Assembly (NCBI GenBank): GCA_964590695.1
Contig: CAZPXA010000003.1
Location: 2,628 to 35,996, forward strand
DNA length: 33,369 bases
Reading direction: 5' to 3'
Source of the DNA: an uncultured Candidatus Saccharibacteria bacterium
GTDB lineage: Bacteria; Patescibacteriota; Minisyncoccia; Phycocordibacterales; Phycocordibacteraceae
Position numbers: made by a program
Shown here: positions 12,001-18,000 of the stretch, in pieces
Numbering within the stretch: the stretch's first letter is position 1
Layout of the letters: the number at the start of each line of letters is the position of its first letter

Positions 12001-15000
12001 TGCTCGCGTGTTTCGACTAAAGACGCGATGGCTGTATGTGGCGATGACTTCGTCTACATTGATGCGACGCCACGCCGCGCATCCGGCGCGCCTGTTTCTC
12101 CTCAAAAAGTTTTGGGCGAGTTACGCTCGTATCATTTGTATTTCTTATGAACAACTCAAAGATTTTATGCGATTTGGCATAGTTCGTCAGCATCTCGTGT
12201 TTATCCCCTTTGGTGTGGACGCGAGTTTTTTCCAACCTACCGACGTGTCCCATGAGGAGGAGCTCATCGTAAGCGTCGGTCGCGATGCGGGTCGCGATTA
12301 TGCAACCCTCTTTAGGGCGGCGGAACACACTAACCACGCATTTGTGGTAGTTGCCGCGCGAAAAAACATCCCGCTTGATATGCCGGTTCCCGCAAATGTC
12401 TCTGTGCTCTATGACAGAAGTTATAGGGAGATTCGGGATTTATATAAACGTGCGCGACTGGTCGTCATTACTTCAAAAGATATGCAAATACCGGACGGGT
12501 CGGATTGTTCGGGTCAGACGGTAACCTTAGATGCTCTTGCAGCGGGCAAGGCAGTCATCGCGACGGAGCGCCCATGGATTACTGACTATTTTATTTCTGG
12601 CCGAGATCTTGTAGTAGTTCAACCAAATAATCCTGAAGCCCTCGCACAAGCGATTGAATCGCTCTGGAACGACGCTGAAAAACGGAAAAACCTCGCGGCA
12701 TCCGGCCATGACAAGGTGGCCGTGCGCTATACAACAAAAAACTTCGCTCAGGCTTTGCTCGCGCTTATGGATTCTGTCGGCCAAACGCCATAATATTCTT
12801 TTTGTATGACATCGACTAATCGTCTTACGCTGTATGTTAATCCCGCATGGCGTCGCGGCGGTATTCATACGCCCCTCCTGTACCCGTGGTGGGGTAATCC
12901 GTATCCCAAAGAGTCAATCTTCGCCAAGCAGATGTTTGACGCGTATTCATTTGATACCGAGTACTACACGGTAACGGATGACATGCAAAAAGCCGATATG
13001 GTGTTGCCGCCGTATCCGCACGTGTGGTTTTTGCGCCACGACACCGCACTTTTTGACGAATGCGTACAAACTGCAAGAAAAGCCGGCCTGCCGCTCCTTA
13101 TAGACGGATTAGGAGACGTAGAGGCCCCGATTGCGATAGAAAATGCGTACATCTTGCGTTACGGCGGATATCGTTTCGTGAACGAGCGCAGAAGGATTCA
13201 GATACCGCCCATGGCTGATGATCTTTTGGAGCGCCACAAAGGCGGCCGACTCAGTATCCGGGAAAAAAGGAACGAAACACCCATCGTGGGATTTGCGGGC
13301 TGGGCGAAGCTTTCCCCCGCCCAGTATCTCCGCACGGTCATAAAAGAATTGCCGATGCGTCTGCATGGCATCTTTGACTCGCGTTATCGCGCGTGCATGA
13401 AGGGAGTGTTGTGGCGTCAGAAAGCGATTGGAATATTGCAACACTCGCCAAGCGTAGCGCTCAATCTGCATGTGCGCAGCTTTTTCTCCGGCAGTCCCAA
13501 GACAGCAATTGGCGATATGCAGAAACTGCGGGATGAAATGGTCGAAACCATACTGGAGAGCGATTATGCGCTTGACGTGCGTGGGGATGCGAACGACTCG
13601 ACCAAATTTTTTGAAATATTATCTCTGGGGCGCATTCCTGTCATAGTAAACACAGAGCGTAATTTTCCTTTCAGCGATAAAATTGACTACTCATCTTTTT
13701 CGCTCACTGTTGATTTCCGCGATATTAAGCGCTTACCCGAGCGGATAGCAGAATTTCATAAAAATGTTTCCCCCGAGACATTTGAACAAATGCAGAGAAA
13801 CGCACGCAATGCCTTTGTCAATTATTTTCGTATCGATGCGCTTATGCGGCCGATCGTAGAGGAATTGCGCTCAAAACTGTCCTCGTAAGGGCTTATTATT
13901 TTGAGACCCGTCATCTGATAGGAGGTTCAGTTTCTGTGGGGGGTCCGTTGTTGGGTCTTACCGTCACGTTCGGGGGAATACCGTACATAATACTATTTGG
14001 CGGGACATCTTTGTTGCATAGGGTCAAAGCCCCAATGACGGAATTATCGCCAATCTGCACCGATTTAATTATTTTTGCTCCCGTGTAGACAGTAACATTG
14101 TCGCCCAACCGCGGCAGATGCGGCATCTCGATTCCTACAATCGTAACGCCGTTATAAATAGTCGCATTTTCCCCTATTGTGGCGCTCGCACCTATTACCA
14201 CATCAGTCGGGTGCGGCAGAAATAATCCAGGACCGATGGTTGCATACGGCGATATGTCATTGGCGAATCGGTACTGCCGCCACATCCGCAGGCGATATTG
14301 GCCGCGCCAGCTTTTGTTGCGGACGAATAATTGGTTCACGCGCAGCCAAAACACGCAGGCAAAGCCGGGCTTGTGCCTCATCGCTCGGCGGACTTGCAGT
14401 AGACGAGAAATAAGCGGCGCGCGGGGATCCACCGTGAACCCGACTCTTCTGGCATCTTGGCGGACAGTGTCCCAAAAAGAAACAAATTGCCAATTTTTGC
14501 TCATAAAACACAATATATCACATCATATTGTGGCTTACGTATGCTGCAAGACCGCCGGGGCGCGAAATGGCATATACATCCGCGCTGACATCGCGGGCCA
14601 GAATACGAACGGCTTGTATAAGCTGATTGGAGACCGAGCCGCCCAATTCGGTGATTTTTGTTGGAGGATAGTATAAGAGCATCGTATAGCCAAGCGAGCT
14701 CTTATCAGCAGGTCTGCCGCCCGGGGTCACCTCGATAAGCTCTGCACCCTGCTTATGGTGGAAATTCATGACCGGGTCGCTTCCCGCAAGCAGATACTGG
14801 CGCACGAATGCGGCGCTCGGCGTTTCTCGCACGGATGGTACCAGCTTCGGTTTGAAACGTGCGCTGCATATTGAAACACAAATGATTTTCTTGTCTTTAT
14901 AGAAAAAAGATATTTGTCCTGCAAGTGCTCCATTTGTATCGATTGCGCCAAGCGTCAAGTATTCTCCAAGATATTGTTTGTATTCCTGGAGAGTTTTTGT

Positions 15001-18000
15001 AAGCGGCCGCCAGCAATGGTTATATAAAGAACGCGACGTTTCCGCAAATGGAGAATGCGGCGGTACCGCAATGAAGCGAAATTCGGCGTTGCTCATGAGT
15101 TCATACAGCGACTCAAACTTCCCATCAAAAATTTCTTTTAGGACCGTACGTTGTACCTTGCCAGTGGACGTCATTGGCAATTCATATCTCTTCACTATGG
15201 CGAAATGTTCTGGTGTTTCATATGCGCTTAATATCTCGTTTCCAACAAGCAAAGCGAGCTTCAATCGCCGCAGGGCGCCCGGCGCATCAGCATTCTCTTT
15301 CAACACGATAACAGCGCCAATTTCCTCGCCGTATCGCACATCATAAACTCCAGTGACATATGCTTGCTCAATGTCGGCGCTAATCTTTTTAAGTGCATTC
15401 TCGACGGCGACGGGGGAAATATTAATTCCACCTTTGATAATGATTTCTTTGGCGCGGCCCTTAAGGAAAAAGAAGCGAAGTCCGTTGATTTCTTTCCAGA
15501 GCCCTATATCGCCAGTTAAGAAATATCCGTCACGAAACGCAAATTCGTCGCCAACGTATCCTTGCATAACCGCTGGACCTCTGACGATGAGCTCGCCCTC
15601 CTGTTTTTCTCCGAGAATTCGCCCTTCCATATCCGCTATTTCAACATGCGCCCACGGCATTGGCGTGCCAATTGAATTTTCTAACATCGCTTCCGCATAC
15701 CGTTCTTTTGAAAGACTCATTGGAACGCCCGTGACGCGCAGTGCCGTCTCGGTTTGCCCGTATCCTTGATAGAGCGGAATGGAAAATTTTTGCATAAATT
15801 CTAGTGCATCTGAAACTACGACAGGAGCAGAACCCAATTGGATACGGCTCAATTTTAATCGGTCTTTCGCTCTTTCGAATTCTTTTATGCGGCCGAGTTG
15901 GTCAAAAATAATGGAAGGAACGACCGACGTAAATGTCGCTCCACTATTCGCCGCTTGTTTAAAAAAACGCGAATTGGAATACATGGGCGGTATCGCAATG
16001 CTCGCTCCTGCGATCAAGGATGCGAGACAAAATGTCGTGGAGTTAATGTGATGAAGCGGGAGCTGGACTAAAAAGCGGTCATCTTCTCCTATACGTAACC
16101 ATTCAACAATACTCTCCGCGTTGACGACCAAATTTTGCAATGTGAGTCGAGCGCCTTTCGGGTGCGCGGTCGTGCCGGAAGTGAAGAGTATAAGCGCTTC
16201 ATGAGAGAAATCAGGCATCCAAGTTATATTGCCGGGAACACTCTTATCTTCTGAAAATTTCTCTTGAATTATCAGCAATTTAGCACTGCTCACTTTCATC
16301 TTATGCTCACGCAATTCAAGTGTGTCGCGCTTTGTGTCAAGCGGCACGGTAGCAATACCGCATGCCCACGCAGCCCAACTGATGATGAGCAATTCAGCTG
16401 AGTTTACGCAGTCAAGCGCAATCCTATCTCCCGTATGCAACCCCTTGCTTTGCAAATACGCGGCCGCATTTTCCACTTTCGTACATAACGCCGCGCGCGT
16501 AATCTCTTTCGTAATCGCGCCGACGGCGTCACACACAAAGATAATCGGCCGTTCCGGGTCGGCGTGTGCAAGCGCTACAAGATGTTCATGCAGGTTTTTC
16601 ATGCATTCGGCAATTCTCGATGTCGCCAGACGAAGAGGTGGTAAAAGGTATAATTCCAGGCGAATCCGAGGATGACGCCGGCTGCGTAGGCGATATGGAT
16701 GAGAAGGAGATTACTTGTCTGGTGCTCGGTTATAAATACAAACAACCACTGCAGGGCGACGGAGCCGCTCACAACGATATGGAAACGCATGAGGCGCGAT
16801 AGGCGCGAAATATCGTGTTGCCTATCGCTGAAGGAAAATCGGTTGTTGAGGTAAAAATTCGTCAAAATGCCAGTCTCCGCGCCGATTACGACCGCGGTAC
16901 TTGGAGAGAATATCCGCAGATATATCCCGAGAATTTCAAACACTATTGTTTGCACTACGAACCCAACGCCGCCGATGGTGATGACACGCAGGAACCGCGA
17001 GTATAAAAATGCACGCATCCTCGTTTTGATATCCATGTGTCCTGTACTATAACGCACACTTGTCGTAACATAAACGCCCATGGCGAATAAAAAACTCTCC
17101 ATCATTATTCCCGTCTATAATGAAGAACAGACCGTCGGGGAACTACTGAACCGTCTCGGGGTCGCCAATATTCCTTCCGGTTGGGAGAAGGAGGTCATCG
17201 TTATAGATGACGCTTCACAAGACGGAACGAGGAATATCTTAAAACGATATGAGCGAGCGATGCGCGTCATATATTGCGGGAAAAACGGAGGGAAAGGCAC
17301 GGCAGTGCGCCATGGTATAGAAAACGCAACAGGGAAATATGTGCTTATTCAGGATGCTGATCTTGAATATGACCCAGCAGACATATCAAATCTTCTCTCA
17401 ATGCTTGAAAACGGAACAGCCGATGTCGTGTACGGTTCGCGCAACCTACATCCGCAGCCTCGCCGCGGCGACCCTATTGCGTGCGTGGGCGTGTGGTTCA
17501 TAACAAAACTTATCAATCTATTGTACGGATTGTCGCTGACGGACGTGTGGACCTGTTATAAACTCTTTCCACGCGAAGCTGGCGATGCTTTCGCAGCGGG
17601 CCGTTTCGAGTCGGAACTGTTATTCACCGCGGCACTCGCGCGAAAAGGCTACCGCTTCGCAGAGGTTCCCATATCTTATGCTCCGCGCAGTGTTGCGAAG
17701 GGAAAGAAAATCCGCTACCGAGACGGGATTCAGGCGACCATACTGATTGTGCTGGACTGGCTGCGACACATCTACTGAGGTACGACTAAGCTTTTCAATG
17801 GTTTCCTTTGCCACAGTGCGTATTGGTCAAACACGCGTATTTCACGATAGGAGGAGAGGTCAAGTTGAGAAGCAGCCCCTTCTTTTACTACCACCAAATC
17901 CGGCACTCCTTGTGCAACGAGAGGCAGTTCCTCCTTGCCAAGGATGACGACTGGCGTCAAGAAAAGATACTGATAATAGGGCATGCCCGATGGCAGGAAG

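Follow-up and report, generated by a model that had tools for sequence, protein, structure and literature searches.

A Patescibacteria Protein Combining an ANL-Type Acid–CoA Ligase with a Predicted, Apparently Rearranged GNAT-Like Decarboxylase: A Candidate Carrier-Free Route from Malonate-Type Acids to Acetyl-CoA

The stretch of DNA analyzed here (the window) comprises 33,369 nt of contig CAZPXA010000003.1 (positions 2,628–35,996; assembly GCA_964590695.1) from an uncultured Candidatus Saccharibacteria bacterium. It encodes a 694-residue protein that joins an adenylate-forming ligase of the ANL superfamily to a C-terminal domain, for which we propose a decarboxylase function. The gene is the middle one of three on the minus strand, flanked by genes for a GtrA-family membrane protein and an LbH (hexapeptide) acetyltransferase (table 1). 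The tight coupling of these genes described in an initial annotation of the window was confirmed by direct reading of the DNA: the stop codon of GtrA and the start codon of the fusion share an ATGA at 16599–16602, and the TGA of the fusion open reading frame (ORF) at 14518–14520 is followed by a 13-nt spacer (14505–14517) and by the ATG of the LbH gene at 14504.

Table 1. Coordinates of the fusion gene, its domains and predicted functional residues, and the neighboring genes. Positions refer to the window unless a surveyed locus (L number) is named.
Feature	Position	Strand	Basis
Fusion gene, predicted ANL acid–CoA ligase plus GNAT-like decarboxylase, 694 aa	14518-16602	-	ORF; full-length homologs; AlphaFold2 model
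ANL half (class I adenylate-forming), residues 1-494	15121-16602	-	PF00501 and PF13193; PDB and three-dimensional matches
Predicted C-terminal GNAT-like decarboxylase domain, residues 495-694, CurA-subfamily-like, rearranged	14521-15120	-	AlphaFold2; Foldseek; profile matches
Predicted ligase pocket residues H185, I186, N187, I254, Q255, G282, Q283, L288, R289		-	AtAAE3 mapping
Catalytic K482 codon (ANL half)	15157-15159	-	
His615 codon (in DPVMNFH), aligned with CurA His389	14758-14760	-	HMMER alignment
Ser680 codon (in YAISRPGG), likely equivalent of CurA Thr355 on the transposed alpha3-beta5 unit	14563-14565	-	Conservation; re-ordering test
Arg630 codon (in GRPxD), aligned with CurA Arg404	14713-14715	-	HMMER alignment
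Tyr645 codon, aligned with CurA Tyr419	14668-14670	-	HMMER alignment
LbH (hexapeptide) acetyltransferase, CysE/EpsC-like	13911-14504	-	PF00132
GtrA-family membrane protein (alternative start 17105)	16599-17036	-	PF04138
GtrB-like GT2	17080-17778	+	Pfam
GT-C/PMT_2 glycosyltransferase	17772-19199	-	Pfam
Tdh-like plus Kbl pair, downstream of the fusion gene	L035 9550-11964; L036 8738-11151; L040 8262-10779; L029 6177-9185		

The N-terminal part of the protein (residues ~1–490) matches PF00501 (E = 5.6e-57) and PF13193 (E = 3.1e-7) and belongs by sequence to the ANL superfamily. The core motifs that the initial annotation had found intact (TSGTTxxPKG, GYGQTE, TGD, and GRxKExIIKGG) and the catalytic K482 do not vary across 116 homologs. 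Among solved proteins, oxalyl-CoA synthetases (6QJZ and 5IE0) are nearest in sequence, followed by MenE and MatB. The AlphaFold2 model of the full-length protein (pLDDT 92.4, pTM 0.87) has AtAAE3 as its closest three-dimensional neighbor (TMt 0.83), with RpMatB (rank 4), LsOCS, and MenE after it. The closest relatives of the ligase half are all CoA ligases, for small or aromatic dicarboxylates, and none of the structural neighbors in the PDB also covers the C-terminal domain. The oxalate pocket of AtAAE3 involves V215-H216, C288-S289, A313-M314, H319, and K500 (PMC8905533); mapped onto the fusion, these positions correspond to I186-N187, I254-Q255, G282-Q283, L288 (followed by R289), and K482, and they are invariant or nearly so among the 116 homologs. 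Judged from these mapped residues, the ligase pocket is polar and cationic (Arg289, Gln255, Gln283, and Asn187) and is not a fatty-acid tunnel. A role in fatty-acid scavenging or lipid acylation was set aside, given this polar pocket and the use of small dicarboxylates by the nearest ligases.

The C-terminal domain (residues ~495–694) is matched by neither Pfam nor NCBIfam, even with the threshold relaxed to E<=1, in agreement with the initial annotation, which could not assign it beyond a weak resemblance to GNATs. Its ~200 residues are strongly conserved, with the near-invariant motifs NHCW, GQ(I/V), SICS, DPVxxFH..GA, GRPxD..S.GY..L..YP, and SRPGG. An AlphaFold2 model of the domain, built from 60 homologs (pLDDT 95.8, pTM 0.91), retrieved GNAT-fold proteins exclusively when compared with the PDB by Foldseek, with weak scores (best E = 6.6e-4, TM 0.4–0.55; TMq 0.48 for GphF), and the domain can be predicted with very high confidence to adopt a GNAT fold. 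The Foldseek result is by itself generic; acyltransferases and decarboxylases were separated by a sequence profile instead. A profile of the domain alone (alignment A2), run against the complete set of PDB sequences, matched the methyltransferase–decarboxylase didomain of SxtA (E = 6e-5), the loading-module GNAT of CurA (E = 6.4e-5), and, more weakly, GphF (E = 0.19). These are all GNAT-like decarboxylases from polyketide starter modules, and no ordinary N-acetyltransferase or acyltransferase GNAT was matched among the PDB sequences. The same profile, compared with 1.84 billion representatives without use of a word index, found just 160 proteins at E<=1e-3: the strong full-length matches have 700–820 aa with the domain at the C-terminus, and the weak ones include bona fide polyketide synthase (PKS) loading modules with the architectures domain–ACP–KS–KR and MT–domain–...–KS, where ACP denotes acyl carrier protein, KS ketosynthase, KR ketoreductase, and MT methyltransferase. 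The family of the malonyl-CoA decarboxylases (MCD) and MatA, PF05292, gave no Pfam match at E<=1 on residues 501–694. The sequence evidence places the domain within the CurA subfamily of GNAT decarboxylases, and it is not a routine extension of acyl-CoA ligases.

Long-form members of the family (~745 aa) carry an insert of 24–32 aa between beta3 and the next strand (A2 columns 77–100, after window residue ~570), a place at which CurA and other PKS domains have an insert of their own. The long forms also have inserts in the ligase half near residues 115–126.

In CurA, His389 and Thr355 form the catalytic dyad for the decarboxylation of malonyl-CoA, with the variants H389A/N and T355V being nearly inactive; Arg404 contacts Thr355, Tyr419 holds His389, and the His stands where acyltransferase GNATs carry their catalytic Tyr (PMC3701320). 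Human and bacterial malonyl-CoA decarboxylases have a His-Ser dyad in common (PMC3701320), and a 2025 preprint defines the "CurA subfamily" by a His plus Ser/Thr pair and describes its members as lacking acyl-transfer activity. HMMER alignment to CurA, with the numbering checked through the spacing of the printed 2REE sequence, pairs His615 with His389, Arg630 with Arg404, and Tyr645 with Tyr419. His615 is His in 100% of the 70 closest representatives, and in the fusion family the positions aligned with the decarboxylase His, Arg, and Tyr, as well as a Ser/Thr, are invariant.

The colinear HMMER alignment offered Ser577 (in VSIC) as the counterpart of CurA Thr355 (in VTLC). This candidate was dropped, because roughly half of the nearest relatives carry Ala there: among the 70 representatives, 23 have Ser and 21 have Ala.

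Ser680, the first residue of the "S/T-R-P" motif, is in turn Ser or Thr in 100% of the 70 representatives. The PKS-type members have Thr at the colinear position and lack the C-terminal unit on which Ser680 lies. An alignment with ten PKS-type domains and CurA gives the following picture: the segment beta3–(insert)–"IVCISICS" of the fusion family corresponds to beta3–(insert)–beta4 "VVQLLAVNI" of the PKS domains, the fusion family lacks, at the canonical place, the unit "motif-A loop–alpha3–beta5" (…ELQNQGLGDRLLEFMLQYCAQISGVEKVVAVTRC) that comes next in the PKS domains, and a look-alike unit (…ELGGSVSNQLIQAVRILARDVSADVYAISRPGG) forms the extreme C-terminus of the fusion family, an end that the PKS domains do not have. 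The order beta4–motif A loop–alpha3–beta5, which is canonical for the CurA subfamily, is therefore not the one found in the fusion domain. When 24 family sequences were re-ordered and scored against a hidden Markov model (HMM) of the PKS domains, the mean score rose from 35.3 to 41.4 bits, with gains of 10–20 bits for the long forms, whereas controls with the block shuffled, deleted, or misplaced scored 19–34 bits. Because of the missing and relocated unit, the re-ordering scores, and the conservation of Ser680 compared with Ser577, His615 and Ser680 likely constitute the catalytic dyad. The domain appears to be a topologically permuted member of the decarboxylase subfamily, in which the strand bearing the hydroxyl residue has moved to the C-terminus.

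Homologs over the full 694 residues form more than 120 clusters at 50–90% identity, all of them from the Patescibacteria; those with a lineage name are from Kaiserbacteria, Liptonbacteria, Paceibacterota, or Parcubacteria. Neither Pfam nor NCBIfam detects the C-terminal domain, so that the names in public records reflect the ligase part alone ("acyl-CoA ligase" or "class I adenylate-forming enzyme"). When a single peptide pattern was run against 185,579 species, each represented by one genome, 32 loci were retrieved, all in metagenome-assembled genomes of Patescibacteria type with the exception of one labeled Gammaproteobacteria, which is probably mis-binned. Each of the 29 complete loci has an ORF of 659–883 aa with the domain as its C-terminus. 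The ligase and decarboxylase halves are also paired in P0164 (locus L042, 6410–8744), in which a 538-aa ligase ORF and a 247-aa decarboxylase ORF lie on the same strand and overlap by 26 nt; the ligase ORF is 38% identical to that of the window and has the motifs LPLHHINST and GYGQTETALRV. Because this upstream same-strand ligase ORF carries the matching motifs, we regard P0164 as a split or frameshifted ortholog. Given the fusion in 29 of 29 loci and the overlap that persists between the split ORFs, the pairing of ligase and decarboxylase is, on the evidence of gene structure, a conserved unit.

The split in this divergent ortholog (L042) could be natural, reflect an assembly error, or stem from programmed frameshifting; TrmB- and PaaX-like regulators are encoded on the same contig. 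A standalone domain as an independent architecture was considered and rejected, since the two relatives that were looked up are the split or frameshifted P0164 and P0271, a truncated fusion that retains a remnant of AMP-binding_C.

The neighborhoods of the fusion gene vary among the loci. An LbH ortholog lies directly downstream in five of them (L007, L010, L011, L013, and L014), and a co-directional, overlapping GtrA gene lies upstream in three (L010, L012, and L013); the complete GtrA–fusion–LbH triad is thus seen again in at least L010 and L013, solely among proteins at least 63% identical to that of the window. The co-occurrence with GtrA and LbH on which the initial annotation had built is thus found again in other genomes, but is limited to the closest subclade. 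Other loci have a divergent GtrA gene with a methyltransferase and a GT47 (L003/L004), a GNAT with Capsule_synth and a flippase (L005/L006), or an amino-sugar or nonulosonic-acid-like cluster with two GNATs (L008/L009 and L015). In eleven loci of the Kaiserbacteria-type long-form clade (L001, L002, L018–L020, L022–L024, L027, L032, and L033; about nine distinct genomes after duplicate fetches), the fusion gene has a housekeeping context, with Ddl upstream of it. Gene order there is conserved as UvrC–Ddl–fusion, often with a small RRM_1 protein downstream, and this conserved order indicates that in Kaiserbacteria-type lineages the fusion is a core gene and not a gene of a glycan island. A further five loci (L029, L035, L036, L038, and L040) encode a Tdh-like dehydrogenase downstream; these proteins of ~400–440 aa do not reach the equivalog cutoff for Tdh (257 vs. 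380). In four of the five, the Tdh-like dehydrogenase is followed by a true Kbl glycine C-acetyltransferase, identified by phmmer in L029 and scoring 578–587 bits against an NCBIfam cutoff of 460 in L035, L036, and L040. A suggestive common denominator of the enzyme partners (LbH, GNATs, and Kbl) is acetyl-CoA.

The initial annotation had reported no phosphopantetheine carrier and no condensation domain, and this was upheld: Pfam detects neither a PP-binding nor a condensation domain in any large ORF of the window, a six-frame scan of the window located the ACP-like GxDS motif in no plausible ORF, and no PP-binding gene is present among the ~160 neighbor genes of 29 loci.

We give roughly even odds (a probability of about 0.5) to the reading that the 694-residue protein is a carrier-free ligase–decarboxylase, which turns a malonate-type acid into its CoA thioester and then into acetyl-CoA. 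In the first step, the ANL half would adenylate a small dicarboxylic acid and transfer it to CoA; the likeliest substrate is malonate or a malonate substituted at C2. In the second, the fused domain would remove the free beta-carboxyl group, with the dyad His615 and Ser680 assisted by Arg630 and Tyr645, and release acetyl-CoA (or the corresponding short acyl-CoA) and CO2. In the window, the product could feed the co-transcribed LbH acetyltransferase and the other acetyl-CoA users of the glycan cluster. The domain identities and the fold, the conservation of the predicted catalytic residues, the constancy of the fusion, its restriction to one lineage, and its variable neighborhoods are observations; from them we infer the substrate, the use of CoA as acceptor, the decarboxylase activity, and the physiological role with its link to acetylation. 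A more far-reaching proposal is that of a carrier-free dicarboxylate–CoA ligase, restricted to the Patescibacteria (Paceibacteria, Kaiserbacteria, and relatives) and joined to a circularly rearranged CurA-type GNAT decarboxylase that acts on the free CoA thioester, supplying cells of minimal metabolism with acetyl-CoA or short acyl-CoA for envelope acetylation and for Kbl/Tdh amino-acid interconversion, and representing the first GNAT decarboxylase with a permuted topology. This fuller version is tentative, and we hold it at odds clearly below even.

Several points weigh against the conversion of malonate to acetyl-CoA. The ligase half reaches no curated NCBIfam cutoff, scoring 179.5 bits against 558 for malonyl-CoA synthase (NF005702), and the oxalate-specific Ser289 and His319 of AAE3 are replaced by Gln255 and Leu288. 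MatB binds the carboxylate through an Arg (R283 in ScMatB), together with His189 and Ser261 (PMC6122825); this Arg could not be aligned with the fusion, in which Arg289 of the pocket region is invariant. Motif A, the canonical loop for the CoA pyrophosphate, does not occupy its usual position, and the CoA site of the decarboxylase domain is putative. It should also be noted that the association with acetyl-CoA users is statistically weak, as acetyltransferases are common in glycan clusters and the Tdh–Kbl pair is found in few lineages, and that the most frequent neighbor, Ddl, has no obvious link to acetyl-CoA. A malonate transporter of the MatC type was not seen nearby. The conversion of malonate to acetyl-CoA would cost two ATP equivalents, with no obvious rationale for the cell and no evident source of malonate.

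In one alternative, the same two-step chemistry acts on a substituted malonate (for example methyl-, hydroxy-, or amino-), yielding propionyl-, glycolyl-, or glycyl-CoA, with the neighboring LbH or GNAT enzymes decorating a glycan with a group other than acetyl. The PKS-type relatives act on methylmalonyl (SxtA) and dimethylmalonyl (GphF) thioesters (2025 preprint), many loci place the gene in glycan or amino-sugar clusters, and the invariant, highly polar ligase pocket fits no curated ligase family. However, many members of the family reside in the housekeeping contexts of Ddl, UvrC, and RRM without glycan genes, Kbl in three loci is the equivalog of an acetyl-CoA-specific enzyme, and nothing identifies the substituent, so that we consider this alternative unlikely, if the best of those weighed.

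The initial annotation had favored another function, a carrier-free analog of the Dlt system in which the acyl- or aminoacyl-adenylate made by the ANL half is transferred by the GNAT-like domain straight to a polyprenol-linked or surface glycan, in conjunction with GtrA and LbH. The coupling to GtrA (ATGA overlap) and to LbH (13-nt gap), the persistence of the triad in L010 and L013, the GNAT fold, and the lack of a carrier in the window would all suit such a module. Yet the domain has the decarboxylase His where acyltransferases carry Tyr, no conserved general-base Glu was identified, and its profile matches include no N-acyltransferase GNAT. Most of the family shows no linkage to GtrA and LbH, and the secondary structure of the full-length model has no membrane segment for a lipid-linked substrate. 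Given this signature of a decarboxylase, a subfamily (CurA) whose members lack acyl transfer, and a synteny that varies, glycan decoration by direct transfer is disfavored and appears quite improbable. What stands of the proposed undescribed decoration module is the architecture, for which no description was found in the libraries and literature searched, and not the decorating function.

It is less probable still that the fusion works with an acyl carrier protein encoded elsewhere, with the ANL half loading malonate onto this ACP and the decarboxylase domain turning malonyl-ACP into an acetyl-ACP starter as in PKS loading modules. All characterized PKS homologs do use ACP-bound substrates, but the carrier-less window and neighborhoods described above, in which KS or acyltransferase (AT) genes were likewise not seen, argue against it, as does the acceptance of CoA thioesters by the CurA GNAT and by malonyl-CoA decarboxylases (PMC3701320).

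Pat- and AcuA-type GNATs acetylate the A10 lysine of ANL enzymes, and Lys482 is invariant, but a regulatory protein acetyltransferase of this kind acting on its own ligase is the remotest of the alternatives, given that the profile matches decarboxylase GNATs and not Pat or AcuA, that the likely decarboxylase dyad is invariant, and that a permanently fused inhibitor is hard to rationalize.

The genes next to the fusion in the window were assigned as follows. GtrA scores 58.6 bits against the PF04138 cutoff of 26.1, which places it in the family. Its start is ambiguous: the ATG at 17036, adopted in the initial annotation, gives 145 aa, the same length as the L007 ortholog, and the ATG at 17105 gives 168 aa but would overlap the divergent GT2 gene beginning at 17080. 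GtrA is probably better explained as the partner of the adjoining GtrB-like GT2 and GT-C/PMT_2 enzymes, and the same GT2 and PMT_2 pairs adjoin GtrA in L007 and L013. The LbH protein scores 44.8 bits against the PF00132 cutoff of 27 and lies below the NCBIfam equivalog cutoffs for EpsC (102 vs. 150) and CysE (86 vs. 211); by these scores it is a member of the hexapeptide family and not a serine acetyltransferase equivalog. A scan for promoters and terminators over 13600–17400 was uninformative, with counts within the shuffle expectation.

The window as a whole is a large glycan-biosynthesis island. It encodes several GT4s, a GT47-like protein, a GT9, two carbamoyltransferases of the NodU/CmcH type (9984–11732, plus strand; 20362–22326, minus strand), FkbM and other methyltransferases, sugar epimerases or dehydratases, an AlgX-like SGNH protein (19212–20384), two GtrA/GT2 pairs, and one GT-C (PMT_2) enzyme. 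The two carbamoyltransferases and the SGNH protein suggest a product that may be O-carbamoylated in addition to being O-acetylated and methylated. The second GtrA gene (22806–23180, plus strand) overlaps a convergent GT2 gene (23121–23894, minus strand), and beside this pair lies an ORF of 717 aa (23601–25754) with no Pfam match; a similar set of GtrA, GT2, and a 592-aa protein unmatched in Pfam is found beside the fusion gene in L003/L004 and L039. Toward the left, an epimerase/dehydratase ORF (4210–5688) and a GT4 ORF (5495–6826) overlap by ~190 nt when the first possible start is taken, and the start of one of them has probably been set too far upstream. At its left end (79–4238), the window resembles a remnant of a mobile element, with an RVT_1 reverse-transcriptase ORF whose N-terminus is apparently truncated (79–825), a TrwB/TraG-like type IV coupling protein (1069–2832), and a surface protein with lamin-tail and PKD domains (2829–4238).

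A literature search on an ANL–GNAT decarboxylase fusion, on malonyl-CoA decarboxylase in the Patescibacteria, and on malonate in the CPR returned nothing relevant. Both domains are of known kinds; what is, as far as searched, undescribed in the libraries and literature is their fusion, its occurrence without a carrier, the apparent permutation, and the confinement to the Patescibacteria. If the ligase–decarboxylase reading is true, a function could be given to a conserved core gene of organisms about whose central carbon and cofactor economy little is understood, and the acetylation of peptidoglycan and glycans would gain a possible acetyl-CoA source. The decarboxylase family, known so far from polyketide megasynthases and MCD, would be extended by a free-standing branch that depends on CoA. 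A single compact protein leading from malonate or its substituted forms to acyl-CoA could also serve pathway engineering.

Among known systems, the Dlt system resembles the window in having an ANL adenylating enzyme in a cell-envelope gene cluster. However, the window encodes no DltC carrier, MBOAT DltB, or DltD, DltA ranks just 37th among the structural neighbors, and the fused domain is of the decarboxylase type and not a transferase. The oxalyl-CoA synthetases (AAE3, LsOCS, and Pcs60p) are the best match in both sequence and structure, with the gating His (H185) and the catalytic Lys conserved, but differ in having Ser289 and His319 where the fusion has Gln255 and Leu288; chemical reasoning suggests, moreover, that oxalyl thioesters would not have the alpha-carbon needed by an enolate-type decarboxylation. 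The fusion domain has three motifs (E..CW, DPxxxFH..GA, and RPxD...G..L..Y) in common with the CurA GNAT_L, the SxtA decarboxylase, and the GphF GNAT, as well as, by prediction, their catalytic His, Ser/Thr, Arg, and Tyr. In contrast to these PKS loading-module domains, it occurs in Patescibacteria and not in polyketide producers, has an ANL ligase as its partner instead of ACP, KS, or methyltransferase domains, and has its motif-A loop, alpha3, and beta5 unit apparently moved to the C-terminus. The closest functional parallel is found in the rhizobial matABC system, where MatB and MatA carry out the same net chemistry as predicted here, with malonate, ATP, and CoA giving malonyl-CoA and then acetyl-CoA and CO2. 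MatB is an ANL enzyme like the ligase half, and RpMatB is among its top structural neighbors, although the fusion ligase lies far below the malonyl-CoA synthase cutoff and no MatC-like transporter was seen. MatA and MCD belong to the same His-Ser/Thr GNAT decarboxylase subfamily as the fusion domain, which differs from them in lacking PF05292 and the N-terminal helical domain (the ANL half precedes it instead), in its PKS-type relatives, and in its rearranged topology. Whereas rhizobia divide the two steps between MatB and MatA, the Patescibacteria fusion would hold both predicted activities in one polypeptide.

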